Source: Alphaproteobacteria bacterium
GTDB lineage: Bacteria; Pseudomonadota; Alphaproteobacteria; MPNO01; UBA830
Direction of reading: 5' to 3'
Assembly (NCBI GenBank): GCA_038146925.1
Contig: JAYQSP010000009.1
Coordinates: forward strand, 4,265-68,264
DNA: 64,000 bases
A program made the position numbers and the translations under genes. This document shows positions 4,199 through 61,694 of this stretch, in pieces (positions within the stretch are counted from its first letter, which is position 1; every line of letters starts with the position of its first letter). The notes beneath the pieces are model-generated. The model did not search any database and was not told where the DNA came from. It saw only the letters and a list, made by a program, of their open reading frames with translations.

Positions 4199-5014
4199 TC
4201 AGACGGCCTTCGTCCGACGGCGCAGCGCAGCCACCAGCAACATTGCGAAACCGACCGCGGCCGGCATCTCGGGCTCCGGCACAGCAACCTGTTCGCCGAT
4301 TTCCAGAGAACTGGTTATTCTGAGGCCGCCGTAGATCTCGGGCGAGCTACCGGCCAAATCGATGGGACCGAACGATGTCCCGGTCCATGTTCCCGGAAAG
4401 ATCGACAGCGATCCGACGGATTTGGTGCCGCTGAACACGTTGGTGATGAAACCGGTCGAGTAGTCGATATCGATCGTGAAAATACCGCCGGTATAGGACG
4501 CGACCTCGGCAAACACATTCGGCGCCGTTTCCTCGAAAACCTTCACTTCGCCGTTTCGGTAAATCCGTCGCTCTGTCGTCGCCCCGGTCGTGAACAGATC
4601 GGCCGCATTTCCGAAATCGAGAGTTAAACCGCGAATGCCGAGGTGGAGCGCGCCGTTGATCCCGACGGATGCCAGCGCCGCGGAAGCGGGCGCGGTTGCG
4701 CCGAGAGACCGCGTGGGCGCGTTGGCCCCGATGGCGAGTTCGCCGCCGGTGACAAAATCATAGGCATCCGGTGTCGCCAGCGACGTGTATGGGCCTGCCA
4801 CGCCGAACGTGGAATAGAAAGCTCCCATCGGGGCATTGGCGGCGCCAACGGTTCCCGCCGATACGAAATCATGCCCGATCACGCCCTGATCCGTGCCACC
4901 CACGGCCGCGTTGCCGGTAAACAGCACTGTCACGGCGGACGCCTGACCACTGAAAAACACTGAAAAAGCGACTGCGACGAGCAGCGCAAACGAGTAATGC
5001 CTGTACTTTGCCAA
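4199..5014 (-). CDS. PEP-CTERM sorting domain protein
   Basis: Signal peptide (YSFALLVAVAFSVFFSGQASA), Gly/Thr/Ala-rich body, C-terminal VPEP + hydrophobic helix + RRR; TTG start at 5014 inferred. Confidence 0.85.
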   Translation of the reverse strand: MAKYRHYSFALLVAVAFSVFFSGQASAVTVLFTGNAAVGGTDQGVIGHDFVSAGTVGAANAPMGAFYSTFGVAGPYTSLATPDAYDFVTGGELAIGANAPTRSLGATAPASAALASVGINGALHLGIRGLTLDFGNAADLFTTGATTERRIYRNGEVKVFEETAPNVFAEVASYTGGIFTIDIDYSTGFITNVFSGTKSVGSLSIFPGTWTGTSFGPIDLAGSSPEIYGGLRITSSLEIGEQVAVPEPEMPAAVGFAMLLVAALRRRTKAV

Positions 5015-5099: not shown

Positions 5100-6350
5100 T
5101 CAGGCGGTCGCCATACGGGGCCCCTTGGACCGGAACAGAATCATCACCATGATGCCGACGTTCAGAACGTTCCAGGCAATGCCGTGGAGGAACGCGGCCT
5201 GATACGAACCGGTCATGTCGAAGATCCAGCCCGACGTCCAGCCGCCGAACGCCATGCCGACGATCGTCATCATGATGAGAAAGCCGACGCGCTCCGCCGC
5301 CACCTTCGCCGGCATGTATTCGCGGACGATGATGGCGTAGCTGGGTACGATGCCGCCCTGCGCAAGGCCGAACATCAGCGAAATCACATAGAGCGACATC
5401 AGCCCGTCGAAGGGCAGATAGAACAGAAGGGCCAGCCCCTGTAGCACCGAGCCGATCAGCAGCGTCCGCACGCCGCCGATATAATCGGCAATGAAGCCCG
5501 ACACCACGCGGGTCACCGCGCCGCCCGCCAGCATAAGCGACAGCATTTCCGCCCCCCGTGCCGCGCCGTACCCCAGATCGGCGCAGTACGCGACGATATG
5601 TACCTGGGGCATCGACATGGCGACGCAGCAGGCGATGCCCGCGATCGACAGCAGGATCATCAGCGAGCGCTGAGACAGGTCGATGGTCTTCCGGTCCGTC
5701 GCAACCGGCGTCGATGCGTCTGCGACAGGTATTTCGTCCATCATCGGCGGCGGCCGACGCAGCATCAGTGCCAGCGGGACCATCGTCACCACCACGACAA
5801 CCGCGATCACCAAATAGGTGAAACGCCACCCGTTCGCGTCCATCAGCGCCTGAACCACCAGCGGCCATATCGTGCCGCCGATATAGTTGCCGCAGGCGCA
5901 CAGCGCCACGGCGACGCCGCGACGTTTCAGAAACCAGTGGGACACGTCGGCGATCAGCGGCCCGAAACTGGCGGCGGTGCCGATGCCGATAAAAACGCCC
6001 TGCAACAGAGCGAACAGCCAGATGTTCTGGACGGCGGACGCGCCGGCGAAGCCGATTCCCATCGCAACGGCCGCCGCAATAATCGGAACCACGATCCCCA
6101 GCCGGTCGACGTATCTTCCGATCAGGACGTTGCCCGCCGCGAAACCGACCATGGTGAGCGTATATGGCATAGACGCATCGCTGCGGTCGACGCCGAACTC
6201 CGCCTGCACTTCCGGCAGGATTACGACCACGCCCCAGAACCCGATGCTGCCGATGGTCCCCAGCAGCATAGACACGGCGAGACGTAGCCACGCGTAGGAC
6301 CCATCGATCAGATCTTTGCCTGACGGGGCGGCGGGGTTTTCAGTTGTCAC
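5100..6350 (-). CDS. MFS transporter
   Basis: 416 aa, about 12 hydrophobic segments, GRYVDRLG and GFIADYIGG loop motifs. Confidence 0.9.
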   Translation of the reverse strand: MTTENPAAPSGKDLIDGSYAWLRLAVSMLLGTIGSIGFWGVVVILPEVQAEFGVDRSDASMPYTLTMVGFAAGNVLIGRYVDRLGIVVPIIAAAVAMGIGFAGASAVQNIWLFALLQGVFIGIGTAASFGPLIADVSHWFLKRRGVAVALCACGNYIGGTIWPLVVQALMDANGWRFTYLVIAVVVVVTMVPLALMLRRPPPMMDEIPVADASTPVATDRKTIDLSQRSLMILLSIAGIACCVAMSMPQVHIVAYCADLGYGAARGAEMLSLMLAGGAVTRVVSGFIADYIGGVRTLLIGSVLQGLALLFYLPFDGLMSLYVISLMFGLAQGGIVPSYAIIVREYMPAKVAAERVGFLIMMTIVGMAFGGWTSGWIFDMTGSYQAAFLHGIAWNVLNVGIMVMILFRSKGPRMATA

Positions 6351-6491
6351 GTTGGATGTCTTGGAAACACGGGTCGGAAATTAGCATCCAAGCGGGTCGC
6401 GTGGCGATGGGAAAAGCCCGCGCCGGAGATCAGAAACCGGTGAGTGAAAAATCAGGCAGGAAAAACGGGTGCCCGCGCCTGCTGAATTTCT

Positions 6492-7331
6492 CTAACCCCG
6501 TTCGGGCCCCTGTGCGACAGGCCGGTCGGGATCGCCGGTCCAGGCCGACCAGGACCCGACATAGAGCGGGGCTTCCAGTCCGGCGGCATATATACCGGCG
6601 AGCTCGAACGAGGCCGCATTGCCGCTGCCGCAATAAACGCCTGCCGGCTGCGAACCATCGACGCCAAGGGCCTTGAACATGGCCTGCAGGTCTTCGGTTG
6701 ATTTGAAGCCGCCGTCGGGGCCGAGCGCGTCTTTCGCGCCGGCACAGATTGCGCCCGGAATATGCCCGGTTGCCGGTTTTTCGGTATCGCCTTCATAGGC
6801 CGTCTTACCGCGGGCATCGAGCAATGCGCCTTCGCGCGCGATGCGGGCTGCGTCGTCCGCCTCGATCACGGGCATGCCGCCGGGAGAAACGGTGATGGTA
6901 CCGCCGCCGGGCGCATGTGCAGTCTCGTGAACGGTGTCGCGTCCCGCAGCGGTCCACGCGGCGAGTCCGCCATCGAGCAGACGAACATTCGCGTGACCGG
7001 CCCAGCGGAGCGTCCACCAGGCACGTCCCGCCTGCGCACCGGACGCATTGTCGTATACGACGACCATAGACTCGGGATGTATTCCGAAACCGCGCAGCGT
7101 TTCCTGGAGAACCGCCGGATCAGGGAGCGGACGACGCCCGCCTTCTTTCGTCGCGGGGCCGGATATGTCCGAAGCAAGCGACACGGCGACCGCCCCCGGA
7201 ATGACCGGGCGTTCTAGCGGCGCCGTTTCCAGATCGTCACTGATATCGAGCAAAACCAGGCCATCGGGACCAGCCATCCGATCGGCCAGGGCATCGACCG
7301 TGATCAGAACATCGGAACGTGTATCCGCCAT
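6492..7331 (-). CDS. Sulfurtransferase (SseA/3-mercaptopyruvate sulfurtransferase-like tandem rhodanese)
   Basis: RAWWTLRWAGH..V.LLDGG..AW, GHIPGA, active site VYCGSG, YVGSWSAW. Confidence 0.9.
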   Translation of the reverse strand: MADTRSDVLITVDALADRMAGPDGLVLLDISDDLETAPLERPVIPGAVAVSLASDISGPATKEGGRRPLPDPAVLQETLRGFGIHPESMVVVYDNASGAQAGRAWWTLRWAGHANVRLLDGGLAAWTAAGRDTVHETAHAPGGGTITVSPGGMPVIEADDAARIAREGALLDARGKTAYEGDTEKPATGHIPGAICAGAKDALGPDGGFKSTEDLQAMFKALGVDGSQPAGVYCGSGNAASFELAGIYAAGLEAPLYVGSWSAWTGDPDRPVAQGPERG

Positions 7332-7338
7332 CTTCCGG

Positions 7339-8217
7339 TTACGCCGTCATCGTGCAGCGATAGAGCAGCCGCGTGGCGTCGCCGTCGTAATCCTTCACGG
7401 CACGGTGCTGGACGACTCGGTTGTCCCAGACCGCCAGCGTGCCCTGCTCCCATTCGAAACGGCAGGTGGCTTCCGGCGACTTGATCATGTCGAACAGGAT
7501 TCCGAGAATATTCTGACTGTGCACGCGGCTGACGCCCTTGATGTAACAGACATAGGATTCGTTTACCGCGACCCACTTGCGACCCGATTCCGGATGCGTC
7601 CGGATCAGGGGCATTTCGAAAGGCGGCATGCGGAGGCGCGCCTGGGCTGCTTCTTCCGGGTCGAGATACCGATCGGTGATGTGCCCGGTCGCATCCGGCG
7701 ACTGAATGACGTTCAGGGTTTCGAGATACTGTGCGAATAGCGGGTCCAGCATGTCGTACACATGCGCCGCGTTCGAAAACATCGTGTCGCCGCCGTTCTT
7801 GGGAGTCGCTTTTCCGAACAACGCCGTAAAAGCGGGAGCATCGGCGCGAAAGCCGCCATCGGCATGCCAGACATGATTGCGAAGATGCGCGTCCTTGCCG
7901 GCGCTGATGACGGTTGCATCCGGATTTTCCGGCGCACGCGGCGTGTGCGGGCCTGCGTAGTGAAAAAATTCGCCCAGAAAACCGGCAAACTTCGTGAAAT
8001 TTTCGGCCGTCACCGTGCCCGGATCGAAAACGACAAGCCCGCGGTTGTGCAGCAAATGACGCATCGCGGTACGGAATTCGTCTGCTACCGAGTCTCCGTT
8101 GAAGATGTACCCTGAAACCCTGGAACCGATCGAGGCCTTGATCGGCGTGACAGAGGCACCGTCCAGCGCCGACACGTTATCGGCGGCGAGTTCAATAGCG
8201 GGATTCGAAGCATTCAT
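7339..8217 (-). CDS. TauD/TfdA family Fe(II)/2-oxoglutarate dioxygenase
   Basis: WHADG (HxD), GGDTMFSN, HPESGRK, WDNRVVQHRA; start refined to MNASN. Confidence 0.9.
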   Translation of the reverse strand: MNASNPAIELAADNVSALDGASVTPIKASIGSRVSGYIFNGDSVADEFRTAMRHLLHNRGLVVFDPGTVTAENFTKFAGFLGEFFHYAGPHTPRAPENPDATVISAGKDAHLRNHVWHADGGFRADAPAFTALFGKATPKNGGDTMFSNAAHVYDMLDPLFAQYLETLNVIQSPDATGHITDRYLDPEEAAQARLRMPPFEMPLIRTHPESGRKWVAVNESYVCYIKGVSRVHSQNILGILFDMIKSPEATCRFEWEQGTLAVWDNRVVQHRAVKDYDGDATRLLYRCTMTA

Positions 8218-8371: not shown

Positions 8372-9109
8372 ATGAATGTCTCCTCCGAAACAAAATTCCG
8401 CCTCGGCATCGTCACCGGACTACAGTTCGAAGCCGACATCGTCCGTCGACTGAGTGGTCAAACCGGCGACCGTATTCCCGGCGACGATTCCCTCGCGGTG
8501 TGCTGCCTGGGACCGGGGCCCGCACGCGCCGGAGATGCCGCGCGGTCGCTGATAGAGGACGGCGCCACCGCCCTTCTGTCATTCGGAGTCGCCGGCGGAT
8601 GCGACCCTGCGTTGCCGCCGGGCACCGCGATTGTCGCAACGGGTATCCGCGATCTCGGCGCCGGCAATGAGATCCTATATACAAACCGCGACTGGCAGCG
8701 CCGCCTGAAATCGCTCCTGCTGGGCAATGTGCTGATCGAAACCGCGCAGATCGCGTCGGCGGAAACCCCGATGTTCACATCGTCAGACAAACGTACTTTG
8801 TTCGGCGATCTCGGCGTCGCGGCGGTCGATATGGAAAGCGCGGCGATCGCCCGTACCGCGATCGGTGCCGGGGTCCCGTTCATGGCGCTGCGCGTGATAA
8901 TCGACCCGCAGGATCTCGGCCTGCCCCAGGCGGCCGTCAGCGGCATGCGTCCGGACGGCAGCACGGCGCTGGCCGCGGTCACCGGGTCCGTTCTGCGCCG
9001 CCCCGGCGACCTTTGGGCCATGATCCGGCTGGCGCGGTACGACCGCATCGCGCGAAAAGCGCTGACGACTGCGGCACAAAGCAGCGCACCGCTGTTCGCC
9101 GCTGTTTAG
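8372..9109 (+). CDS. hpnG: Hopanoid-associated nucleoside phosphorylase HpnG
   Basis: GIVTGLQFEA start, LLSFGVAGG.DP.LPPG, AVDMES, PF.ALRVI.DP; hopanoid neighbourhood; start refined to MNVSS. Confidence 0.8.
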   Translation: MNVSSETKFRLGIVTGLQFEADIVRRLSGQTGDRIPGDDSLAVCCLGPGPARAGDAARSLIEDGATALLSFGVAGGCDPALPPGTAIVATGIRDLGAGNEILYTNRDWQRRLKSLLLGNVLIETAQIASAETPMFTSSDKRTLFGDLGVAAVDMESAAIARTAIGAGVPFMALRVIIDPQDLGLPQAAVSGMRPDGSTALAAVTGSVLRRPGDLWAMIRLARYDRIARKALTTAAQSSAPLFAAV

Positions 9110-9164: not shown

Positions 9165-9532
9165 CCGGAACGCTCTGACACGGGAGCGTCCGGGGAGAAG
9201 ACTCAGTCCTGGAGGTTCGTTGTCTCCTTCGGGATGCGTCCGCCTTCGAGACAGTCGGCAAGGGTATGCAACAACATGGCCCCGCCAAACAATTGCCGGT
9301 TGTCCGTATCGCCAGTATCAAGAACTTGACCGGTCCATCAATTGAACTGGCCGTAGTCAGGATACGTTTGTGCGTGGCCGGCGAGATCGGGGAAGTGGAA
9401 GTAAATCTTTCCAGTCGTTCGGAATTCAACAATCGTTTGCTGGTTGGCCGTACCTTTTTATCTGACCGCATCCTGGTCGATTCCAGCCGGACGAGAATGC
9501 ACCCCGGTAAATGCAGGACCACCCCCAAGTGA
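9165..9532 (+). pseudogene. Frameshifted/truncated retropepsin-like RimK/LysX-associated protease
   Basis: C-terminal VVRIRLCVAG....EVNL..R..F...LLVGR.FL...LVD.S in ORF 9266-9532; a DTGAS motif lies at 9177-9191 in a different frame. Confidence 0.5.
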
Positions 9533-9822
9533 GCAGCGGCGAGGTCGATGAAAGCCAGGTCGATCTCGATATCGACACGATCGGCCATCTGCGGGAAATT
9601 GCGTGGAAGCGGTCCCCCGCCAATGTCCAAGCGCTGATCGACCGGCTTCAGGCTCAGATTTACACGATCAAGATGCCAAAGCGGCGACGACGACTCGATC
9701 GGGCGCTGATCGACTACTATGAAGAAGTGCTTGAAGCCCGGGAGGATTCCGCAGGCCCCGCGCGCGAGCGTTTGTCGCCGCTGGAGTACGCCCGTCAGAT
9801 CATCAAGGGAATCGAGGACTGA
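9529..9822 (+). CDS. Hypothetical protein
   Basis: GTG start overlaps upstream TGA (GTGA); coding-like codon usage; 97 aa, helical. Confidence 0.6.
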   Translation: MSSGEVDESQVDLDIDTIGHLREIAWKRSPANVQALIDRLQAQIYTIKMPKRRRRLDRALIDYYEEVLEAREDSAGPARERLSPLEYARQIIKGIED

Positions 9823-9861: not shown

Positions 9862-10461
9862 TCAAGGCCTGACCATCGCGTAGTTGAAAACTTTCTTCAC
9901 GCCGTCGCCCTCTTCGAGCTTGGCGATCGCTTTCTTCAGTTCTTCGCGCGACCGGGCCCGGCCCATCAGGTACAGATTGCCGTAGGGGTCGCCGGTCACC
10001 CGGAAGTTGACGTCGGCGACGCCGGCGGTACCGATCAGACGCGCGCCCGCCTTGGTTTCGAAGGCCAGCACGTCTTTCCAGTCCATCATGCGACCGTCCT
10101 TGATCGCTTCTTCCTTGGCTTCGTCGGTCATGTAGGCAACGTGCCAGTACAGGTTCTTGACGCCCTCGACCTCGCGGACGCCGGTTTCGAATTTCTTGTA
10201 AGTCTCGGCGTCGGAAAACAGGCCGGTCACAAGCAGCCGCTGTTCGTATATCTCCGTCGATGCCTTGATCGTGCCGAGATCCGCCATGACCTTGTTCACG
10301 TCGATCACGATCGCGTTGTCGCGGGCGATGTCCGACGACGACCGCGCTTCGATCGCCCGGTCGATCAGTTTTTTGGGACCGAGCAGAATATCGGATAGCT
10401 GGGCAGATGCCGGCGTAGCGGCAAATACCCCGGCGAGAAGAACGAATACAACACGACGCAT
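9862..10461 (-). CDS. BON domain periplasmic/lipoprotein-like protein (two BON domains)
   Basis: Signal peptide MRRVVFVLLAG; LLVTG...GVREVEGVKNLY and VNFRV....GNLYLMGRA..E...A......GDGVKKVFN. Confidence 0.75.
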   Translation of the reverse strand: MRRVVFVLLAGVFAATPASAQLSDILLGPKKLIDRAIEARSSSDIARDNAIVIDVNKVMADLGTIKASTEIYEQRLLVTGLFSDAETYKKFETGVREVEGVKNLYWHVAYMTDEAKEEAIKDGRMMDWKDVLAFETKAGARLIGTAGVADVNFRVTGDPYGNLYLMGRARSREELKKAIAKLEEGDGVKKVFNYAMVRP

Positions 10462-10530: not shown

Positions 10531-11292
10531 TCATCGAATGCCGGTATCGATCCGCGGCAGGATGTCGGTATTTGCGCGCGCGACGTCTTGGGGAAAATCG
10601 ATCTCTACCCACGGAATCCCTGTTACGTCCTCGAACCCGATCCGGGCCGGATCCCGCAGGATGGCATCCCGGATGACCTCTTCGTAGGGTGCGTCGCGGT
10701 CGCCACGATCGATATATGCCTGCGCGCCCTCGATCAGTTCTCTGCACAGCCCAGGCGACCATTTGAAGAACCCGACGGATTCGCCGCACCAGTCGAACGG
10801 CGTCTCCACGATCTTGCGGAAATCCACCACCGTATTTTCGTCCGACACGCAGATTTTAACGGGTTCGTCCCCTTCCTCGAAATCGCGGTCGACCAGCAGG
10901 CAGTTCGGATGGCCCGAATTTGCAAGCCGCGCCAGCATCCGGGGGTCGTACAACACGTCCGCGTCCATCAGAATCACCGGACCGGACGCCGCCGCCATCC
11001 AGTCGCCCATGACGGCAAGCGTGAGCACGCTGCCCTCGGTGAAATCGGGATTGAAAACGTAGCTTATATCGCCGGGAAAAAGGACTTTTTCAGCCGCTGC
11101 CTCGATCTCCGGGGCACGATAACCGACCCCGATACTGACATCCCGGACCCCGATCCGCGCGAGATTTTCGAGATGCCGCGCAAGCAGCGTTTTTCCGCCG
11201 AAGTCAAGCAGCGCCTTGGGCGGTTTATCGTCCATGTCGCCGAGCCGGTTGCCGACGCCGGCCGCCAGGATACAGGCCGAGTTCGCCGTCAT
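10531..11292 (-). CDS. Phosphocholine/phosphonate cytidylyltransferase family nucleotidyltransferase (LicC/PntC-like)
   Basis: ILAAGVGNRL, PKALL, MDADVLYD, GESVGFFK, WVEIDFPQD; start refined to MTANS. Confidence 0.85.
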   Translation of the reverse strand: MTANSACILAAGVGNRLGDMDDKPPKALLDFGGKTLLARHLENLARIGVRDVSIGVGYRAPEIEAAAEKVLFPGDISYVFNPDFTEGSVLTLAVMGDWMAAASGPVILMDADVLYDPRMLARLANSGHPNCLLVDRDFEEGDEPVKICVSDENTVVDFRKIVETPFDWCGESVGFFKWSPGLCRELIEGAQAYIDRGDRDAPYEEVIRDAILRDPARIGFEDVTGIPWVEIDFPQDVARANTDILPRIDTGIR

Positions 11293-11389
11293 GACCCGGC
11301 ATCCCCACCGGAGACGGCGGGGAAATCCGCATTCCGTAAATTCACTGTGAAGTACTCCGCATCGGTCATTGCACGTCACTCTGACGCGC

Positions 11390-11407
11390 CTTACATAAAC
11401 CTGTAAC
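11390..11407 (+). promoter_or_regulatory. Pho-box-like direct repeat upstream of hpnM
   Basis: CTTACAT-AAAC-CTGTAAC, 7-4-7 with 11-bp period. Confidence 0.5.
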
Positions 11408-11464
11408 ACAAAGTGCGCTGTATTTGCGGTTGGCGTCTTTGCGTCTCATGACGGGAGAAACGGG

Positions 11465-12115
11465 TTGGTATCGAATTCGATCTGGAGACTGCGCCGCGGC
11501 GCGGCAGTACTCGGGTTTGCGCTGTGCTTTTTCGCGACCGGGGTAACGGCGCAGACAGCGCCGCCTGCCGATCCCGGACGCCCCCAGGCCATCATCGCCG
11601 GTTTCAACGAATCTCTGCTGGGCGCCATGAAGAATGCCGATACGCTTGGCTTCCCGGGCCGGTGGAAAGCCCTGGCGCCGCCATTGACGCAGGTTTTTCA
11701 TCTGCCCGTCATGACGCGGATCGCGGTCGGGACGCACTGGCGCAAATTGACTCCCGAACAGCAGGACCGTCTGGTCGACAGCTTCAGCCGCCTGACGATC
11801 GCCACCTATGCCAACCGGTTCGACGGCTGGTCGGGCGAAAGCTTCGAAATGCGCGGCATGGAAAATGTCCGCGACAAAACGGTGCTGGTCAAAACCGCGA
11901 TTATCCGGCCTAACGACGAGCCCGTGGAAATCAATTATCTGATGCGCCGGTTCGAGACCGGGTGGCGGGTAATCGATGTGTTCCTCAAACGGTCCTACTC
12001 GGAGCTGGCCACCAAACGATCGGAATATTCCAGCGTCCTGCGGCGCCATGGCTTCGACACGCTGATCCGCCAGATCGAGGAGAAGATAACCCAGTACGCC
12101 GCCGGCACGGGCTGA
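11465..12115 (+). CDS. hpnM: HpnM / Ttg2D (MlaC)-like periplasmic lipid-binding protein
   Basis: Signal peptide; F....M.RIAVG..WRKLTPEQQ..L...F....ATYA.RF, W.VIDV.....SELA..RSEY; GGGAGA RBS before TTG. Confidence 0.8.
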   Translation: MVSNSIWRLRRGAAVLGFALCFFATGVTAQTAPPADPGRPQAIIAGFNESLLGAMKNADTLGFPGRWKALAPPLTQVFHLPVMTRIAVGTHWRKLTPEQQDRLVDSFSRLTIATYANRFDGWSGESFEMRGMENVRDKTVLVKTAIIRPNDEPVEINYLMRRFETGWRVIDVFLKRSYSELATKRSEYSSVLRRHGFDTLIRQIEEKITQYAAGTG

Positions 12116-12116
12116 T

Positions 12117-12773
12117 ATGGGCAATCCCCTGACAAAAGCGTTCGCCGTCTGCGCGGCATTGTTCGCGCTCGCGGTCGCCGACACACGGTCCGCGGCGGCC
12201 GCCGGCAACGTCGTGCGCCTCGACCCGGAGAAGGCTTCACACCTGTTGAGCCTTGCGCGCATCGACGGGCGTCCGTTAACGCCGGATCTGCTTCATGGCC
12301 GCGCGGTGATCGTGTCGTTCTTCGCCAGCTGGTGTCCGCCCTGCAACACGGAATTCGAGCATCTAAACCTGCTGAACGTCACGCACGCGGCGAAAGGGCT
12401 GACCATCGTCGCGGTCAACCAGTTCGAGGATTTCACGGGGTTCGGCGACGACGGTAAGCGGCTGAACCGGTTTCTCGACCGACACCAGCCGGTCTTCTCC
12501 ATGGTCAAAGGCACCGATGAGACGGCGAAACTGTTCGGCGACGTTAAACGCATCCCGACGGTGTTCGTATTCGACCGGTCGGGTGGCGCCCGGCTCCATT
12601 TCATCCATGCAGAAGGCGCCGTGAAAACCAATCCCGGCATGGACGAGCTGCAAAAGGCGGTACGCGATGCGCTGGGCGTCAGCGCGGCCGGCACCTTCCC
12701 GTTGTTGCCCGAGTCGCCGGATTCTGTAACAAAGCCGTCACATTTCACCAAACTGGCAAAAGGCCGCTCCTGA
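12117..12773 (+). CDS. TlpA family thiol-disulfide oxidoreductase
   Basis: Signal/anchor peptide, [10 protein letters not shown] (CxxC), [10 protein letters not shown]. Confidence 0.85.
12724..12741 (+). promoter_or_regulatory. Pho-box-like direct repeat upstream of pepM
   Basis: CTGTAAC-AAAG-CCGTCAC, within the AT-richer 3' tail of the tlpA-like ORF. Confidence 0.45.
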
Positions 12774-14443
12774 TGGCGACGAATGTCGAAACCGGCGCGA
12801 TGCCGGGCAAACCCGGTTCCGCGCTCAGCAAATCCGCCCGGCTGCGTGCATTGCTGGAGGGCCCCGAACTTGGCTTTCTGATGGAGGCGCATGACGGCCT
12901 GTCGGCAAAGATTGCGGAAGAAGCCGGCTTCGAAGCCATCTGGGCGTCCGGGCTTTCGATGTCCGCCGCGCTGGGCGTGCGCGATTCCAACGAGGCCTCG
13001 TGGACCCAGGTGCTGGAAGTTCTGGAATTCATGGCCGATGCGACCGGCATCCCGATCCTGATGGACGGCGACACCGGTTACGGCAATTTCAACAATGTCC
13101 GCCGGCTGGTGATGAAGCTCTGCCAGCGCGGCATCGCCGGCGCCTGCATCGAGGACAAGCTGTTCCCGAAGACCAATTCCTTTATCGGCGACGGCCAGCC
13201 GCTGGCCGACATGGAGGAATTCTGCGGCAAGATCAAGGCCGGCAAGGACAGCCAGACCGATCCCGGCTTCGTGCTCGTCGCCCGGGTCGAGGCGCTGATT
13301 TCCGGCTGGGGACTGGACGAAGCGCTGAAGCGCGCCCACGCCTACCGGGACGCCGGCGCCGACGCCGTGCTGATCCATTCGAAGCAGTCCAGCGCCAACG
13401 AGATCATGTCCTTCATGCGCGAATGGGACGATTCCTGCCCCGTCGTGATCGTGCCGACCACCTATTACGGGACGCCGACCGACCAGTTCCGCGCCGCCGG
13501 GGTCAACGCCGTGATCTGGGCCAATCATTCGGTCCGAGCCTCCATCAGCGCCATGCGCGAAGCCGCCCGTAAGATTCACGACGAAGAAAGCGTCGTCGAC
13601 CTGGAAGACCGGATCGCCACCGTGAAGGATATCTTCCAGCTTGCCGGAAACGACGAGCTGAAAGACGCCGAAGACCGTTACCTGCCCACCGACGACGACG
13701 CGCCGCGCGGCATCGTGCTGGCCGCCACCCGCGGCAGCGCGCTGGGACCGCTGACCGAGGACAAGCCGAAATGCATGGTGGAAATTCAGGGCCAGCCCCT
13801 GCTCCGTCGCCTGACCCGGTCGCTGCGACAGTCGGGCGTGCGCGACGTCGCCGTCGTGCGCGGCTATGCCAAGGACGCCGTCGACCTGCCGAACCTGACC
13901 TATATCGACAACGACGCGTTTGAGACCACGGGCGAAGCCGCGTCGCTCGCCACGGCGATCGACCGGCTCACCGGCGACACCGTCATCGCCTATGGCGACA
14001 TTCTGTTCCGCCGCTACATTCTGGACGCGCTGGTCGAGACCGAAGGCGATATCGTGCTCGCCGTCGACGGCATGTGGCGCGAACGCACCGACCGGTCGGA
14101 AAATTCGGGCCGCGACCTGGTGCGCTGTTCCCGCCCCTTCAGCCCCAGCTTCATCGAGGACGATCCGGTCCTGTTCGAAGGCATCGTCGCGGATGCGAAC
14201 GATGCCGACGACTGCACCGGCGAATGGATCGGTATTGCGCGGCTCAGCAAGAAGGGCGCCGAACTGGTCCGCAAAGAACTCGAAGCCATGAAAAGCGACG
14301 GTACGCTGGAAACCGCCGACCTCGCCACCCTGTTCGCAAGGCTGGCCGATGCCGGTAACGCACCGCACGTGCATTACGTCGCCGGCCACTGGCTTGACGT
14401 AAACGACGCCTTCGATCTCGCCCGCGCGCGGGATTTTTTGTAG
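12773..14443 (+). CDS. pepM: Phosphoenolpyruvate mutase fused to C-terminal nucleotidyltransferase domain
   Basis: Diagnostic [10 protein letters not shown] (EDKxxxxxNS), [16 protein letters not shown]; C-terminal LAATRGSAL...KPKCM, YGDILF, WLDVND. Confidence 0.96.
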
Positions 14444-14457
14444 ACTCCTTCCCGTTC

Positions 14458-14530
14458 GTCATCCCCGCGCAGGCGGGGATCTCTCTGAATACAGAATCCT
14501 CCACAAGATTCCCGCCTGCGCGGGAATGAT
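14458..14530. repeat. REP-like inverted doublet, family A
   Basis: GTCATCCCCGCGCAGGCGGGGATCT (14458-14482) and inverted AGATTCCCGCCTGCGCGGGAATGAT (14506-14530). Confidence 0.85.
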
Positions 14531-14566
14531 GGACAAAACAGCGCGACAATCACCAGAGCCCTCACC

Positions 14567-15703
14567 ATGATCAACGCCGACGATTTCCTCTCTCCCGCCC
14601 GCGACGCCGGATACGATTTCTACACCGGTGTGCCGTGTTCGTTCCTGACAGAGATCATCAACCGGGTCATTTCGGATACGTCGCTGGACTATGTCGGCGC
14701 GGCGAGCGAGGGCGAAGCGGTAGCCATCGCATCGGGCGCCTGGCTGGCGGGACGCAAAACCGTGGTCATGTGTCAGAATTCCGGTCTCGGCAACACGGTC
14801 AATCCGCTGACGTCGCTGAACCACCCGTTCAGGATCCCCACCATGATGATCGTCACCTGGCGTGGCCAGCCCGGCATCACGGACGAACCGCAACACGAAC
14901 TGATGGGCCCGATCACCCCGGATTTGCTGGACACCATGCATATTCCGCACAGCGTATTCCCCCAGTCGGAAGACGAGATAGCGGACGCGCTGGCAGCGGC
15001 GCAGGCGAAAATGGACGAAACCGACCTGCCCTTTGCCTTTGTCATGCCGAAAGGCTCCGTCGCACCGGAGAAACTGGACGAAGCCGCCCGCGCATTGCCG
15101 CCGCGCGGCACGCTGACGGATTACACGGAAGGCGGCGAGCGTCCGACGCGCTACCGGACGCTGGAACGCCACCTGGCGCTGGTGCCGGACACCGCGGCGG
15201 TAATCGCGTCCACGGGCAAGTCCGGACGCGAGCTGTTCACCCTCGACGACCGCGACCAGCATCTCTACCAGGTCGGCTCCATGGGCTGCGCCAGCGGCAT
15301 GGCGCTCGGCGTGGCGCTGAATTCGGACCGCAAGGTCGTCGCGCTGGACGGCGACGGCGCCGTGCTGATGAAAATGGGCGCGCTGGCGACCGTCGGCGCC
15401 TATCAGCCGGATAACCTGATCCACATCGTCCTCGACAACGGCGTCCACGATTCCACGGGCGGCCAGTCCACCGTCTCCGCCTCGGTCGAATTCGCCGAGA
15501 TCGCCATTTCGTCCGGCTACGCGACAGCGGCGAAATGCGACAGCCTCGACGGGTTCGAAAAGGCCTATTCGGCGGCGCTGTCGGCAGACGGCCCGCACCT
15601 GATCCATATGCGCATCCAGCCGGGCTCGCTGAAGGAACTCGGCCGGCCGACGGTGAAGCCGCCGGAAGTAGCCCGGCGGTTCAAGGCGTTTCTGGCGGGG
15701 TAA
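14567..15703 (+). CDS. ppd: Phosphonopyruvate decarboxylase
   Basis: FYTGVPCSFL, EGEAVAIASGAWL, MCQNSGLGN.VNPL.SL, DEPQH, GSMGCAS, ThDP motif DGDGAVLMKMG..NG.HDSTGGQ. Confidence 0.95.
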   Translation: MINADDFLSPARDAGYDFYTGVPCSFLTEIINRVISDTSLDYVGAASEGEAVAIASGAWLAGRKTVVMCQNSGLGNTVNPLTSLNHPFRIPTMMIVTWRGQPGITDEPQHELMGPITPDLLDTMHIPHSVFPQSEDEIADALAAAQAKMDETDLPFAFVMPKGSVAPEKLDEAARALPPRGTLTDYTEGGERPTRYRTLERHLALVPDTAAVIASTGKSGRELFTLDDRDQHLYQVGSMGCASGMALGVALNSDRKVVALDGDGAVLMKMGALATVGAYQPDNLIHIVLDNGVHDSTGGQSTVSASVEFAEIAISSGYATAAKCDSLDGFEKAYSAALSADGPHLIHMRIQPGSLKELGRPTVKPPEVARRFKAFLAG

Positions 15704-15717
15704 CAGACAAGAATGAG

Positions 15718-15808
15718 CCCCTCCCCCTTTTAGGGGGAGGGCTAGGGAGAGGATTAAATAAGCTTGTCTCCCCCTCTCCCTAGCCCTCTCCCCGGAGGGG
15801 CGAGGGGA
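15718..15808. repeat. GC-rich nested palindrome, family B
   Basis: GAGGGCTAGGGAGAGG (15737-15752) perfectly inverted at 15773-15788, plus hairpin CCCTCCCCCT-TTT-AGGGGGAGGG. Confidence 0.75.
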
Positions 15809-15883
15809 TATTCAGTGCCGTCGTCCCGCATTGACTCCCCTGCCCGTTGGCGCAAGAAACACGGCACAAAAGGGAGACATCCG

Positions 15884-16639
15884 ATGGCCGACATCACGCT
15901 TTACTGCTTTCCGCAATCGACCTGCAGCCAGAAGGTGCGCCTTGCGCTGTGGGAAAAGGGCATTCCGTTCGAGGAAAAGCATGTCGATCACAAGAACCGC
16001 GAACACCTCAGCGACTGGTACCTAAAGCTCAACCCCAACGGCGTGGTGCCGACCCTGACCGACGGCGACGACGTGATCATCGATTCCTCGGTCATTCTGG
16101 AATATCTGGAAGACGTCTATCCCGAACATGAAATGTCGCCGAAGGACTTCGTGAAGCGCGCCCACATGCGGAAATGGCTGCGCTATCTGGAAGAGGTCCC
16201 GACCCCGGCGATCCGCGTGCCGTCCTTCAACAAGCATCTCGCGAAGCGCTACGAGAACATGGAGGACGACGCCTATCAGGCGATGGCCGAGGCGCATCCC
16301 GTCCGCAAGCATTTCTACCAGCGCATGAACAAGACCGGCTTCAGCGCGGAAGAAACGGCGGAATCCCTCGACCGCTTGGACAGCGCCGCACAACGGGTGG
16401 CCGAAGCGCTCGACGGCCACGGCAAGGACTGGATCATGGGCGACATGCTGACCATCGTCGATGCCGCCTACATGCCGACCGTCGACCGCATGATCGATCT
16501 CGGCCTGAACGACATGATCGACAGCCGCCCGGCGCTCAAGGCCTGGTACGACCGCTACGCGGCCCGAGACGCTTTTTCTAAGACGTTCTACGAAGGCGCG
16601 CGGTTGACCGATATCTTCGGCAAGGATGCGGCGGCGTGA
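15884..16639 (+). CDS. Glutathione S-transferase family protein
   Basis: STCSQKVRLAL.EK, YLKLNPNGVVPTL, DSSVILEYLED; GGGAG RBS before MADIT. Confidence 0.92.
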   Translation: MADITLYCFPQSTCSQKVRLALWEKGIPFEEKHVDHKNREHLSDWYLKLNPNGVVPTLTDGDDVIIDSSVILEYLEDVYPEHEMSPKDFVKRAHMRKWLRYLEEVPTPAIRVPSFNKHLAKRYENMEDDAYQAMAEAHPVRKHFYQRMNKTGFSAEETAESLDRLDSAAQRVAEALDGHGKDWIMGDMLTIVDAAYMPTVDRMIDLGLNDMIDSRPALKAWYDRYAARDAFSKTFYEGARLTDIFGKDAAA

Positions 16640-16650
16640 CACCGGCCAAA

Positions 16651-16768
16651 AGATCCCCGCCTGCGCGGGGATGACAGTTTAAGTTAAGTTCCGTCATTCC
16701 CGCGCAGGCGGGAATCTTCTTGCCACCGAAACAGACACGTAGACCCTCGGATCAAGTCCGAGGGCGAC
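16651..16768. repeat. REP-like cluster: family A doublet plus family C palindrome
   Basis: AGATCCCCGCCTGCGCGGGGATGAC (16651-16675), GTCATTCCCGCGCAGGCGGGAATCT (16693-16717), GACCCTCGGATCAAGTCCGAGGGCGAC (16742-16768). Confidence 0.85.
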
Positions 16769-17926: not shown

Positions 17927-19462
17927 TCAGTTTCCCGTGACGATGTCCTTCAATTCGCGGCGCAGAACCTTGTTGGCGGCGTTGCGCGGCAAGGCGTCGA
18001 GAAACCGGTATTCCCGGGGCCGCTTGTAGTTCGCGAGCGCGGAGTCCCGGCACCACGCATCGAGCGTATCGGCATCGATGCCATTCGCGACGACACAGGC
18101 GACGACCCTTTCCGACCACCGATCGTCCGGCATGCCGATCACGGCCGCCTCGCGCACGGCTTCGTGCTGCATCAGGATCGTTTCGACCTCTTCGGGGTGA
18201 ATGTTCTCCCCGCCCGACACGATCATGTCATCCACCCGGCCGCACAATTCCAGATCGCCGTCGGGACGCCGGAAGATGATGTCGCCGGTCCGGTACCAGC
18301 CGCCGGTCAGTTTTTCCGCCGTCGCATCGGGCCGGTTGAGGTAGCCGAGGAACGTGGCGTCGGCCGTCGCGTCGACCAGCAGTTCGCCTTCTTCACCGGC
18401 GTCGCAGACATCGTCGACGTCGCCGCCGATCCGCCCGACCCGCACCCGCGAATAGAAACCGGGCCGGTATTGCAGCGGTCTGCCCGCGGGGTCCGGCATA
18501 TACAGCGCGTTCATGACTTCCGTCGTGCCGTAAATGTTCGTTATCCTGGCGTTGGGGAAGGCCGGTTTCACGCGGTCGAGCAACGGCCCCGGCATCACCG
18601 CACCGGCGTAAACCAGCGTGTCCACAGAACCCATGTCGGCGGGATCGAAACCGGGCGCCGCCAGCATGGCATGAAAATGCGCCGGCGCACCGAACACATA
18701 GGTGAGGCCGTGGGTTTTGATCGCTTCGACGGCGGCGGCAGGATCGAACGCGGAATGCACGTAATAAGTGCCGTTCAGCGACAGCGTCGTGACCAGCGCC
18801 GCATAGAACCCGACGGCGTGAAACAGCGGCATCAGGCCAAGCGCCCTGTTCTGCGGCCCATGGCGCAGGCCGCACTGTACCGGCACAAACAGAACGCGTC
18901 CGTCGGTGGCGCGATGCGGGATCATGACGCCCTTGGGCAACCCGGTGGTTCCGGACGTATAGAGAACGAAGGCGACGTCTTCGGGATCGGGTGGCGTCCA
19001 GGCCGTCAGGTCCGCCGCGTCGGCGCGGCAGGTTTCAAAGGTAGCCGCGCCGTCGAATTCGCCCCCGACGGTCAGGATGGGCGCGTTTTCCGGCAGCGCG
19101 GCCCCGGCCGCGGCGACGATATCTTCATCGGCGATGCAAACGGCGCCCGCCATGTCCGCATCCGCGATCAGGGACCCTGCCTCGTCCGGTTTCAGGCGCG
19201 GGTTGATCATGCAGACGACCGCCCCCAGCCGGTGCAGCGCCAGGAGCGCGATCACATGCTGCAGCACATTGGGCAGAACGGTCGCGACATACTGACCGGG
19301 CCGCAGGCCGGCCTCGGCAAGACCCGCTGCCGCGGTTTCGACCTCGTCCACCAACTCGGCGAACGTCAGCCGGCGGTCGCTGCGGTCGTCGACCACGGCG
19401 ATGTTGTCCGGCGTCCGGTCCGCGGCCAGCCATATGTGATCCCACACCGTCTGCATACCCAT
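17927..19462 (-). CDS. AMP-dependent acyl-CoA ligase, 4-chlorobenzoate-CoA ligase-like
   Basis: YTSGTTGLPKG, RVLF..Q.GLRHG..N..LGLMPL.H.VGF, NIYGTTE.MN.LYM, PGFYS.VR..RIGG; matches my recollection of the Alcaligenes 4-CBA ligase; start refined to MGMQTV. Confidence 0.8.
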   Translation of the reverse strand: MGMQTVWDHIWLAADRTPDNIAVVDDRSDRRLTFAELVDEVETAAAGLAEAGLRPGQYVATVLPNVLQHVIALLALHRLGAVVCMINPRLKPDEAGSLIADADMAGAVCIADEDIVAAAGAALPENAPILTVGGEFDGAATFETCRADAADLTAWTPPDPEDVAFVLYTSGTTGLPKGVMIPHRATDGRVLFVPVQCGLRHGPQNRALGLMPLFHAVGFYAALVTTLSLNGTYYVHSAFDPAAAVEAIKTHGLTYVFGAPAHFHAMLAAPGFDPADMGSVDTLVYAGAVMPGPLLDRVKPAFPNARITNIYGTTEVMNALYMPDPAGRPLQYRPGFYSRVRVGRIGGDVDDVCDAGEEGELLVDATADATFLGYLNRPDATAEKLTGGWYRTGDIIFRRPDGDLELCGRVDDMIVSGGENIHPEEVETILMQHEAVREAAVIGMPDDRWSERVVACVVANGIDADTLDAWCRDSALANYKRPREYRFLDALPRNAANKVLRRELKDIVTGN

Positions 19463-19622
19463 TTCGGCACTCTTCCCGTTACGTCGGAGCATCATACTGA
19501 GGCGATGCACCGCCCTTCAACCGCGGCGAGACAACGCATTGGTTAACCGAAGTTAAACCTGTCGCCGGTAGAGTTCCGGCATTCGCGCGCGTTCCCTGCG
19601 CGCTTCAACAGAGATCGCGACC

Positions 19623-20607
19623 ATGAGCAATGCAAACGCGGCGCCAGCCGACAGCCACGACAGTTTCGACAACGCCTTCGAAGCGATAGACGATCTCGAA
19701 GCCGGGACGCTCGATTTCGAAGAGGACATCAAGGCGGTCGCAGGCGTGGCCGACCAGGTCCAGGCAATCGCGAAACAGACCAATCTGCTGGCGCTGAATG
19801 CCACGATCGAAGCGGCGCGCGCGGGCGATGCCGGCAAAGGATTCGCCGTCGTCGCCGCCGAAGTGAAACAGCTGTCGGACGAAACCCGCAAGGCCACCGA
19901 CCAGATCGGCGCGACGCTGAAATCGCTGACCGCCAAGCTGGAACAGTTCGTGGCGAGAACCGAAACTGCGCGCAAATCCATCGAACACGCCCAGGACCGG
20001 TCGGGCAGCCCGGTCGGGATCGTTTCCGATACGCCGGCGCAAGAGCCCGCCGCCGCGGCGCGGATTTCCGAAGCGCCGCCCCGGGTCGAAACCGCCGCAG
20101 CGCCGGAACCGCCGCCCCCCCGCCGCGCCCGAAACCGTGCCCGAACCTGCCGCCCCCGCGAAGCCGGCACAGGCGGCCGGTCCGTGTCCGGATCTTCCCA
20201 TCTCCACCGGCGACATCAAACATGTGCAGCAGAGCTTTATCGCCATCGGCCTCGATTCCGCCGAAACGGCAGACATGTTCTACGGGCGTCTATTCGAAAC
20301 CCATCCGGATCTGGAAAGCCGCTTTACCGGCGAAATGAAAGAATACGGCCACCAGCCGATCGAAATCATGCAGGTGATGGTCGCCGGTATCCTGAGCAAC
20401 GAATCCGTCCTGCCGGTGGTTCGGGAACTGGGCAACCGGTACCGGGAATACGGCGTGGAAGTAGGCGATTATGCGGCCGTGGCAGAAGCGCTGATGTGGA
20501 CGCTGGAGCAGAAGCTTGGCGACAGGTTCACGCCGGATATCCGCAATGCCCGGGTGAACTTCTATGCCCTTATCGCGGAATCGATGATCAAGGGTCCGGT
20601 GACGTAG
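19623..20607 (+). pseudogene. Frameshifted soluble MCP signalling domain - Pro/Ala linker - C-terminal globin
   Basis: [28 protein letters not shown]; globin VQQSF....[13 protein letters not shown]...YGV..L.WTLE in +1 frame; removing one C from the C7 run at 20115-20121 joins them. Confidence 0.8.
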
Positions 20608-20613
20608 ACCGAT

Positions 20614-21855
20614 TCATTCTTCGTCCTGTTCCGGCCCGCGAGGATCCATCAGTGCCGCCGCAGGACCTGCGCGGGCAAGCGCGACGAAGGCTGTTTTGTC
20701 GTCCGGAGAAACGGGCGGCTGCCCGATGAGCCGATAAAGCGAGAATGCGCCGATCGCCAGAAAGACCGCTCCGATAAAGGCATAGAGCGCCCGCACATCG
20801 GTCAGTTCCATCAGCAGCCCCGATACCAGCGGGCCGATCACCGCGCCGACCGCATATACCAGCAGCAGACTGGCGCTCAACGACACGATATCGGTTTTGT
20901 CCGTACAGTCGTTCGCATGCGAAACCGCGAGGGAATAGACGGCAAACGACCAGCCGCCGTACCCGATGGCAAACAGATAGAACGTCATCGCGTCGGCCCG
21001 GTACGTCAAAAAGACGATTACAGCGGCCAGTACCGTGCTTAACAACGCGACCACGAAGATAACCAGACGACGGTCGTAGCGGTCTGACACCCAGCCGATC
21101 GGCCATTGCAGAATCAATCCGCCGAATATCGTGCAGGTCATGAATATCGCCGTGCCGTTTTCTCCCAGCCCTGCCTCGGTGGTGAAGACCGGCGTCAGCG
21201 ACCAGAAGGCCCCCTGTCCCATGCCGACGCCGAAACAGGCGACAAGCCCGAGCGGAGAGATCAACCAAAGCCGCCGAATGCCCAGCCGGGTATAGGATTC
21301 CAGAACGGGTTGCGGACTGCTGGAAATCGACAACGGTACCGCCGCGAGAGAAATCAGGATCGAGACGCCGCAGAACAGAACAAACCCGGATGAATCCGCG
21401 GTCAGCAGCAACAGCTGGCCGAAACCAAGCGCGCCGAGATTGACCATCATGTAGATGGCGAAGATTCGTCCCCGCGATTCCGCGGTTGCCCGGTCGTTCA
21501 GCCAGCTTTCGATCACCATGTACAACCCGGCGAAACAGAAGCCCGCGATCCCGCGCAACAATGCCCAGAAGATCTCGTCGACCATCATGATGTGGGCCAG
21601 GGATGCCGCGGACGCGATGGCCGTCAGCGCCGCATAGGTCCGGATATGGCCGACATTCTGAACCAGCCGCGGGCAGCCCAGACAACCGAGCAGAAAACCC
21701 AGATAGTAGGCGCCCATGATGAGCCCGATCGCGCTGGAGGAAAATCCCTCGCCGATGCCGCGTATCGCCAGCAACGTCGCATACAGGCCGCTGCCAAGCA
21801 GCAGCAGAGCTGTGCCCAGCAGCAGGGCGGAGACGGGAAGGACGAAGGACCGCAT
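20614..21855 (-). CDS. MFS transporter (YcaD-like)
   Basis: [53 protein letters not shown]. Confidence 0.9.
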
Positions 21856-23002: not shown

Positions 23003-23069
23003 GGAGAATATTTAGATCAATTCCTTCGGCGTCGCAGAATCTTTTCGTAGTCCCGGCGCCGACATAAAG

Positions 23070-23114: not shown

Positions 23115-23146
23115 TGAACATTCGAAGCAAGTCAAAGGTGGGGCGA

Positions 23147-61688: not shown

Positions 61689-61694
61689 GATCGC

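Follow-up and report, generated by a model that had tools for sequence, protein, structure and literature searches.

What are genes for phosphonate biosynthesis doing inside a gene cluster for hopanoid lipids? The question is raised by a 64-kb stretch of DNA from an uncultured estuarine alphaproteobacterium (the window, whose coordinates are used for all positions below), in which hpnM, a gene for a putative hopanoid carrier, is packed into one unit with genes for the synthesis of aminoethylphosphonate (AEP). The original prediction for this locus was that AEP is transferred to a bacteriohopanepolyol, or to another lipid exported by the same carrier. The observation on which it was built is confirmed, and the interpretation finds partial support. 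There is good support for a functional link between the making of AEP and the hopanoid lipid system, because the linkage is conserved, phosphonate genes share stop/start overlaps with hpn genes, and metatranscriptome contigs cross the gene junctions. More specifically, the block at 10531-16639 and the transaminase gene at 21896-23002 are together best explained, tentatively and at a little under an even chance, as a phosphonyl-tailoring (Pnt-type) module within a hopanoid cluster that would place AEP on a bacteriohopanepolyol.

The gene map rests on six-frame open reading frames (ORFs), on Pfam and NCBIfam scans, and on public gene calls for near-identical contigs, which supply the final gene coordinates. 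The features that carry the argument are the following.

1236-2111 (+): hpnD, presqualene diphosphate synthase (TIGR03465, SQS_PSY)
2206-4191 (+): shc, squalene-hopene cyclase (SQHop_cyclase_N and _C; public calls start at 2215)
8372-9109 (+): hpnG-like hopanoid-associated phosphorylase (TIGR03468)
9862-10461 (-): BON-domain periplasmic protein (PF04972, 26.8 bits)
10531-11292 (-): NTPdiv, a stand-alone PntC/IPCT-like cytidylyltransferase of 253 aa (NTP_transf_3)
11293-11464: divergent intergenic region between NTPdiv and hpnM, 172 bp
11465-12115 (+): hpnM, HpnM-subfamily member of the MlaC family of periplasmic lipid-binding proteins (TIGR03481)
12117-12773 (+): TlpA/ResA-like periplasmic thiol:disulfide oxidoreductase (Redoxin/AhpC-TSA, signal peptide, WCPPC)
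12773-14443 (+): pepM, phosphoenolpyruvate (PEP) mutase fused to an NTP_transf_3 domain (TIGR02320)
14454-14534: palindrome resembling repetitive extragenic palindromic (REP) elements, in the pepM-ppd gap; second copy at 16644-16724
14567-15703 (+): ppd, phosphonopyruvate decarboxylase (TIGR03297)
15884-16639 (+): GST-family gene (GST_N and GST_C)
21896-23002 (-): AEP:pyruvate transaminase (AEPT), PhnW type (NF010006, TIGR02326, TIGR03301)

All genes named at the outset (the cytidylyltransferase, hpnM, the tlpA-like gene, pepM, ppd, hpnD, shc, hpnG and the transaminase) lie where they had been placed, and the junctions between hpnM, tlpA and pepM are exactly as described. The description had overlooked the fusion in PepM, the conserved GST gene and the palindrome between pepM and ppd.

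The hpnM stop codon (TGA, 12113-12115) is separated by a single nucleotide from the ATG of the tlpA-like gene at 12117 (TGAtATG, 12113-12119), while the TGA of the latter overlaps the pepM ATG at 12773 by 1 nt (TGATG, 12771-12775), and on the layout of these junctions the three genes are translationally coupled. The divergent NTPdiv gene has its ATG 172 bp from the hpnM start, which is a TTG preceded at 7 nt by GGGAGAA, and the region between them is presumed to carry promoters for both genes; a scan of this region with the sigma-70 consensus gave no match, and terminator-like sites are no more frequent than in shuffled sequences. Further downstream, the 123-bp gap between pepM and ppd holds the 81-nt REP-like palindrome (RNA fold -55.9 kcal/mol, z -6.1), whose second copy follows the GST gene, and a different palindrome with 35-nt arms occupies the ppd-GST gap at 15718-15807. 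Relatives have stop/start overlaps at pepM/ppd (4 nt) and at ppd/GST instead of these palindromes, and the distance at which the GST gene follows ppd varies by 64 nt between conspecific strains. The GST gene, whose best solved relative is LigF (4XT0), is the conserved final gene of the operon, and the tlpA-like gene is an optional member. It is uncertain whether the BON gene belongs to the module, as it flanks it in the closest relatives only (76-87% identical beside the NTPdiv gene in loci L012-L018).

The operon is represented in metatranscriptomes from salt marshes and another aquatic site (four runs). Contigs cross hpnM-tlpA (11549-12401 and 11687-12144), tlpA-pepM (12302-12846 and 12682-13479) and pepM-ppd including the palindrome (13924-15065), which indicates, as far as unstranded contigs can and short of proof, that hpnM-tlpA-pepM-ppd are co-transcribed. 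Contig depth is highest in the region over the BON gene, at 11-15 in three of the four runs, compared to approximately 0-6 over NTPdiv and 0-7 over the operon, and this unevenness argues for RNA rather than contaminating DNA. At the palindromic elements the contigs show loose ends, as expected for dispersed repeats.

The three enzymes required for AEP are identified by their families. PepM scores 387 bits against TIGR02320 (cut-off 320) and carries the PEP-mutase motif EDKxxxxxNS at residue 127; it is a 556-aa fusion, with the mutase at residues ~24-294 and a LicC/PntC-type NTP_transf_3 domain at residues ~313-556. Ppd reaches 445 bits against TIGR03297 (cut-off 312), with N- and C-terminal thiamine pyrophosphate domains. 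The transaminase, encoded 6 kb from ppd among unrelated genes, exceeds all cut-offs (NF010006, 525 bits versus 296; TIGR02326, 476; TIGR03301, 457). The family assignments support a route in which PepM, Ppd and the transaminase would convert PEP via phosphonopyruvate and phosphonoacetaldehyde into AEP. The gene identities and the AEP pathway originally proposed, including PntC-type activation, are supported.

Activation of AEP could involve two nucleotidyltransferase domains, namely NTPdiv and the domain fused to PepM. The best solved relative of NTPdiv is Treponema denticola PntC (6PD1/6PD2), with a full-length alignment at E 1.7e-12. Its P-loop GVGNRLGDMDDKPPK departs from the pattern GxG(T/S)Rx4-8PK in that Asn replaces Thr/Ser. 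The catalytic and pocket residues of PntC were defined by Rice et al. (PMC6697681), who found that PntC enzymes favour AEP and yield CMP-AEP, the cytidine monophosphate conjugate; a small pocket, bordered by Glu104 and Glu196 and closed to phosphocholine, is taken as a hallmark of PntC. The equivalents of Arg15, Lys25, Lys153 and Glu196 are kept in NTPdiv and in 27 orthologues; Glu104 is Asp in all of these proteins, as in LicC. Conversion of AEP and cytidine triphosphate into CMP-AEP can be strongly inferred for NTPdiv. The pocket residues were also considered as a means to discriminate between pepM-positive and pepM-negative loci, for which they are uninformative, being identical in both.

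The domain fused to PepM may also form CMP-AEP, but it lacks the canonical P-loop Arg that defines PntC. Its best solved relative is LicC (1JYK), and its P-loop (13709-13770, PepM residues ~313-333) is non-canonical: Ala replaces the catalytic Arg, and the nearest preceding Arg stands three residues before it. Among the matches listed, 105 of 120 homologues share the motif RG[SG]ALGPLTE[DK]xPK, and since the variant P-loop is conserved across the clade, the domain is under selection, though it may work differently from characterised PntC and LicC. The odd P-loop furthermore suggests that the stand-alone NTPdiv is needed for AEP activation.

On the hopanoid side, HpnM carries a signal peptide and scores 188 bits against TIGR03481 (cut-off 160), compared to 40 bits against the MlaC equivalog (cut-off 195), so that it is not a canonical MlaC; a grouping with phospholipid MlaC had been named in advance as an outcome that would count against the proposal. 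hpnD reaches 318 bits against TIGR03465 (cut-off 279), shc 422 and 460 bits against SQHop_cyclase_N and _C, and hpnG 177 bits against TIGR03468, slightly below the cut-off of 187; in relatives hpnG directly follows shc.

The conservation of this arrangement was followed in two surveys. In the first, an HpnM alignment was run against one genome per GTDB species, yielding 80 loci with flanks of up to 10 kb on each side, which were probed by tblastn with the window proteins. Genes shc or hpnG lie within 10 kb in 51 of these 80 orthologous loci, which makes the HpnM family truly hopanoid-associated. PepM-nucleotidyltransferase and Ppd are encoded within 10 kb of hpnM in 13 of the 80, with pepM-ppd immediately following hpnM in the same orientation in 12 of the 13 and lying 3 kb downstream in L054. 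In the second survey, anchored on PepM, seven homologues of the fusion (64-71% identical) on long contigs were sampled; all seven adjoin hopanoid-cluster genes, six of them inside full hpn clusters, and L097 of this set represents the same lineage as L021. The adjacency of hpnM and pepM is thus not peculiar to this genome but widely conserved; its confinement to this genome was the other outcome that had been named as damaging. The presence of NTPdiv is associated with that of PepM over the 80 loci (12/12/1/55, Fisher p = 5e-7, uncorrected for phylogeny). A search for a cultured carrier of the module returned metagenome-assembled genomes only.

The commonest gene order is hpnD-shc-hpnG-hpnH, followed by NTPdiv on the opposite strand and, divergent from it, hpnM-(tlpA)-pepM/nucleotidyltransferase-ppd-GST, with overlaps of 4 nt at pepM/ppd and 1-4 nt at ppd/GST; the ppd stop is overlapped by the GST gene in L097 and in the P0216 contig. 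The seven closest relatives (L012-L018) have a tlpA orthologue between hpnM and pepM, as do L094 and L096. In the closest relatives, whose HpnM is 62-67% identical, the rest of the hopanoid cluster is split by unrelated genes, and despite that breakup the block of NTPdiv and the divergent hpnM-tlpA-pepM-ppd-GST is intact in the window's group. Across more distant loci the hpnM-phosphonate linkage persists down to 42-50% HpnM identity. Gene hpnH lies between hpnG and the NTPdiv gene in L021-L023, L092, L094, L096, L097 and the P0216 contig, and nearby in L093.

Elsewhere the coupling takes other forms. An hpnB-hpnC-transaminase operon with stop/start overlaps (HpnB 534 bits, HpnC 269 bits) occurs in L094 and L096, with the transaminase gene last, and beside that gene lies a PhnY*-like PhyH gene whose sole NCBIfam match is methylphosphonate hydroxylase; such PhnY*-like hydroxylase genes adjoin phosphonate genes in L061 and L093 as well. 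The left part of L093 reads hpnA-NTPdiv, a convergent PhyH gene, and then pepM-ppd-CDP-alcohol phosphotransferase with overlaps, whereas its right part holds an MFS (major facilitator superfamily) transporter gene and a CDP-alcohol phosphotransferase gene on one strand and, on the other, hpnN overlapping a further CDP-alcohol phosphotransferase gene, with hpnL 19 nt downstream. In L061, genes for Ppd, the transaminase, PhyH and a CDP-alcohol phosphotransferase stand between hpnM-hpnL-hpnN and the NTPdiv gene; this locus ends just past NTPdiv, so that its apparent lack of pepM is no evidence of absence. CDP-alcohol phosphotransferase and methyltransferase genes separate hpnM from pepM in L092, the transaminase gene adjoins ppd in L062, and L095 begins in an hpnM remnant 67 nt before pepM and has two CDP-alcohol phosphotransferase genes after ppd. 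CDP-alcohol phosphotransferase genes thus accompany the module in L054, L061, L062, L092, L093 and L095. Their products include small enzymes (190-235 aa) resembling archaetidylinositol phosphate and phosphatidylinositol phosphate (AIP/PIP) synthases, encoded among hpnA, NTPdiv, hpnN and hpnL genes in these six loci and in L050 and L069, the last two of which have no pepM within 10 kb. The small enzymes hint at phospho-alcohol head-group chemistry on or around hopanoids, of which no description was found.

Phosphonate and hopanoid genes are thus interleaved at the level of operons, in ways that differ between lineages; the arrangement is in excess of chance and conserved in approximately twenty related lineages. 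The counts given above are not independent events, because they are most simply accounted for by a linkage that arose once in an ancestor and was later lost in some lineages. L032, a pepM-less locus in which the GST gene directly follows hpnM, suggests that pepM-ppd was inserted into a pre-existing hpnM-GST unit.

How does this module relate to systems already described? In the Pnt pathway, Ppm, Ppd, AEPT and PntC make CMP-AEP for the decoration of cell surfaces, and about a third of Ppm enzymes carry a PF12804 nucleotidyltransferase domain as a fusion (Rice et al. 2019, PMC6697681). The window shares these four activities, the Ppm fusion and a second cytidylyltransferase nearest to T. denticola PntC. 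It differs in having no LicD-type or glycosyl transferase nearby, in its hopanoid neighbours and in the variant P-loop of the fused domain. The Lic pathway for phosphocholine (LicC/LicD) likewise relies on a cytidylyl-activated small head group, and LicC is the closest solved structure to the fused domain; here, in contrast, the substrate is a phosphonate made in situ, and LicD, choline kinase and transporter are missing.

A further precedent is the group named Burkholderiales_CDP-OH, predicted phosphonolipid clusters of uncharacterised product (Li & Horsman 2022, PMC8942020; Group 1 of Yu et al.), whose seven-gene core encodes a Ppm-PntC fusion, Ppd, AEPT, an alpha-ketoglutarate oxygenase, a second PntC and phospholipid genes (PMC8942020). 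The Ppm-PntC fusion, Ppd, AEPT and the second PntC are present in the window, and relatives add genes for an alpha-ketoglutarate/Fe(II) oxygenase and a CDP-alcohol phosphotransferase. Unlike in these clusters, the module is embedded in hpn genes and overlaps them by stop and start codons, and the 64 kb of the window hold no CDP-alcohol phosphotransferase. The oxygenase-family genes in the window are a TauD-family gene (7339-8217), not conserved in relatives, and a PhyH gene (47969-48790) that is not the orthologue of the PhnY*-like genes.

The HpnN-HpnM-HpnS route for hopanoid export was predicted from AlphaFold 3 models and synteny, patterned on MlaFEDB-MlaC-MlaA, in a study that mentions neither phosphonates nor nucleotidyltransferases (bioRxiv 10.1101/2025.07.29.667474). 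The window resembles it in having a signal-peptide-bearing MlaC paralogue of the HpnM subfamily in the neighbourhood of shc. It differs in that hpnM heads an operon with phosphonate genes and in that no hpnN is found in the window (hpnS, which is MlaA-like, was not searched for).

The idea that terpenes might carry phosphonates is itself not new, and although no characterised phosphono-hopanoid is known, as the original prediction stated, it had been preceded by speculation. A phosphonoterpene was suggested for Nitrosococcus gene cluster family GCF 731 (PMC8942020, citing Wang, Lim & Klotz), and a similar suggestion, of a terpene-phosphonate, exists for Acetobacteraceae (PMC8776678). Both proposals start, as here, from squalene/hopene genes beside ppm and arrive at a terpene-phosphonate product. 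Unlike the present case, they are one-sentence remarks on other taxa, in which no module with hpnM, a PntC-like enzyme or a CDP-alcohol phosphotransferase was identified and for which neither operon-level nor expression evidence nor a count of lineages was given. The novelty seems to lie in the definition of the module, in the interleaving of its genes at operon level in some twenty lineages, in its expression in situ and in its CDP-alcohol phosphotransferase/PhnY* context.

The mechanism favoured here would run as follows. The phosphonyl group of CMP-AEP would be transferred to a lipid alcohol at the inner membrane by an enzyme of the CDP-alcohol phosphotransferase type, as the interleaving of such genes in relatives suggests. 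A bacteriohopanepolyol, with its polyol side chain, is the best candidate for the acceptor, and the product would reach the outer membrane via the HpnN/HpnM route. Some relatives probably modify AEP beforehand, by 1-hydroxylation (PhnY*-like gene) or methylation. A bacteriohopanepolyol is the likeliest acceptor because the coupling is to hpnB, hpnC, hpnN, hpnL and hpnM, and not to any glycerolipid gene. Likewise, the CDP-alcohol phosphotransferase and PhnY*-like genes found in relatives among hpnN, hpnL, hpnB and hpnC make a lipid-bound phosphonate head group plausible. To that extent the proposed transfer of AEP to a bacteriohopanepolyol or a co-exported lipid finds support, but the transferase, hpnH and hpnN that it would call for are missing from the window.

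A wider version of this proposal is possible, though on balance doubtful: in many alphaproteobacterial hopanoid clusters, mostly of uncultured Alphaproteobacteria, an NTPdiv-type enzyme and one to three small CDP-alcohol phosphotransferases would attach phospho- or phosphono-alcohols to bacteriohopanepolyols, which HpnL, HpnN and HpnM would flip and export. Candidate head groups for such hopanoid phospho(no)lipids are AEP, 1-hydroxy-AEP and perhaps N-methyl-AEP.

Several observations weigh against AEP on a bacteriohopanepolyol. The binding or transport of hopanoids by HpnM, treated in the original prediction as established, is itself a prediction, and the function of the protein is termed elusive in a study (PMC12583986) that lists 63 bacteriohopanepolyol structures in 52 alphaproteobacteria without mention of a phosphonate; none of the strains in that study that can be matched to surveyed loci carries the module. 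A search of the literature found no paper that joins a bacteriohopanepolyol with AEP. When HpnM sequences are arranged by neighbour joining, all pepM-positive loci belong to one broad clade of the tree, with pepM-less loci interspersed. The usual donors of AIP/PIP synthases are CDP-lipids, which leaves the direction of transfer open. NTPdiv is also found near hpnM in 11 loci that have no phosphonate gene within 10 kb, two of which (L050 and L069) hold a CDP-alcohol phosphotransferase gene as well, so that it need not be phosphonate-specific. Finally, neither a phosphonyl transferase nor hpnH, hpnN, hpnA or a CDP-alcohol phosphotransferase gene occurs in the window. A tblastn search of the 64 kb with the HpnH, HpnN, HpnA, HpnL, HpnB, CDP-alcohol phosphotransferase, PhnY*-like and methyltransferase proteins of relatives recovered none of them, the only matches being the TlpA orthologue and a weak one to the PhyH gene at 47969-48790, which is not orthologous to the PhnY*-like genes. 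If the proposed mechanism is right, the transferase, hpnH and hpnN must be encoded elsewhere, and with no transferase in view the window does not fix the acceptor. A species without hpnH would have no polyol side chain to serve as acceptor for AEP.

The main rival, which is rather unlikely in our estimate, is a classical phosphonolipid: CMP-AEP would be used for diacylglycerol or another non-hopanoid lipid that is co-regulated or co-exported with hopanoids, and HpnM may then carry the phosphonolipid rather than a hopanoid. Such a product would follow the gene logic of the seven-gene Burkholderiales core (PMC8942020), glycerolipids are the normal substrates of CDP-alcohol phosphotransferases, relatives of MlaC bind phospholipids according to matches in the PDB, and the literature searched reports no phosphono-hopanoid. 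However, a diacyl product leaves unexplained why phosphonate genes overlap with hpnB and hpnC and CDP-alcohol phosphotransferase genes with hpnN, no plsC, cdsA or similar glycerolipid synthesis gene occurs in the Pfam-annotated loci, and 51 of 80 loci link the HpnM subfamily to shc.

A second, improbable alternative is that NTPdiv, with the HpnA and CDP-alcohol phosphotransferases of relatives, is a phosphonate-independent enzyme of the hopanoid side chain, which activates for example a phospho-alcohol head group or a phosphorylated ribosylhopane intermediate, and that only the PepM-fused domain serves AEP. The 11 loci mentioned above, where NTPdiv often stands beside hpnA, fit this well, as do the shared pocket residues in pepM-positive and pepM-negative loci and the families of HpnG (phosphorylases) and HpnA (NDP-sugar epimerases). 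Against it, NTPdiv occurs only where PepM is present in the subclade nearest L094, L092 and L021, its best solved relative is PntC, and the fused domain, without the catalytic Arg, seems to need a stand-alone partner.

A third alternative, also improbable, is inherited synteny, in which a pepM-ppd cassette landed between hpnM and GST in an ancestor and was carried along, while AEP would be attached to glycans or proteins or else released. In its favour, the L032 arrangement resembles the state before such an insertion, the HpnMs of pepM-positive loci make up a single clade in which losses seem to have occurred, the window's transaminase gene lies apart from the module and most characterised bacterial AEP is destined for glycans (PMC6697681). 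Against it, the linkage is kept down to 42-50% HpnM identity despite heavy surrounding rearrangement, different phosphonate genes are coupled to different hpn genes by lineage, which a single passive insertion does not predict, and no glycan-transfer genes are nearby, a Pfam scan of most predicted genes in the 64 kb having found no glycan, glycosyltransferase or LicD gene.

If AEP is indeed placed on a bacteriohopanepolyol, the consequences would be considerable. No known lipid joins a hopanoid and a phosphonate, so that the product would constitute a new class with a phosphatase-resistant zwitterionic head group. Functions would follow for long-unassigned hpn genes (hpnM, hpnL, perhaps hpnA and hpnB), geochemists would gain a diagnostic family of biomarkers, and estuarine and marine waters a lipid-bound source of C-P compounds, which make up a large part of marine dissolved organic phosphorus. 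A diacyl phosphonolipid, if that is the product, would provide the first genomic handle on such lipids reaching the outer membrane. The carrier organism is common in public data, its exact HpnM sequence being indexed in 32 collection blocks, chiefly of metagenome assemblies.

Beyond the module, the mapped part of the window contains the following features, and its remaining genes encode transporters and catabolic enzymes.

4199-4933 (-): PEP-CTERM-like protein
5100-6350 (-): MFS transporter
6492-7331 (-): rhodanese
7339-8217 (-): TauD-family oxygenase
9529-9822 (+): ORF of 97 aa
16802-17797 (-): SsuA/NMT1-like binding protein
17927-19510 (-): AMP-binding enzyme
19623-20729 (+): MCP-globin, a fusion of methyl-accepting chemotaxis protein (MCP) and globin type
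20614-21855 (-): MFS transporter

Two of the non-module ORFs were considered as tailoring enzymes and set aside. The TauD-family gene belongs to an MFS-rhodanese-TauD block (5100-8217, -) between shc and hpnG, where the closest relatives have the MFS gene alone beside hpnG. Taurine, the substrate of TauD, is the sulfonate analogue of AEP. As a candidate AEP 1-hydroxylase, the gene fails on conservation beside hpnG, and with its rhodanese and MFS neighbours a sulfonate role is more likely; there is no tie of this copy to the phosphonate genes. The ORF at 23069-24553 (494 aa), divergent from the transaminase gene, was rejected as the missing enzyme, since it belongs to a highly conserved family paired with a downstream methylenetetrahydrofolate reductase (MTHFR) gene and in a relative lies 150 kb from the phosphonate genes.

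This ORF probably starts at 23147, which gives a protein of ~468 aa. Sequence comparison with Pfam, NCBIfam and the PDB gave no match for it, although it has at least 8000 homologues, the best 120 of which are at least 61% identical. Its motif VFDAGMGDGTV resembles, by eye, motif I of S-adenosylmethionine-dependent methyltransferases. Here and in the one relative checked it is directly followed by the MTHFR gene (24553-25449), and here then by a short MetE-like gene (25483-26712), so that these genes look like a conserved one-carbon operon with an uncharacterised protein, unlinked to the phosphonate genes.

PEP-CTERM-like C-terminal sorting signals are found in two proteins, one encoded directly after shc (4199-4933, -; VPEP...RRRTKAV) and the other at 26893-27537 (+; PAPG...RRRNR). 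The MCP-signalling/globin gene (19623-20729, +) varies among near-identical strains, occurring as a fused 327-aa gene, as split genes of 238 aa and 90 aa, or as an unrelated 206-aa gene with a 127-aa globin gene. The molybdopterin xanthine-dehydrogenase/CO-dehydrogenase family is represented by three full-length large subunits (40237-42606, 51948-54329 and 61612-63957), one truncated one (50594-51466) and one FAD subunit (47002-47940), which lie amid TRAP, TTT and MFS transporter and CoA-transferase genes and form a catabolic island unrelated to the phosphonate and hopanoid genes.

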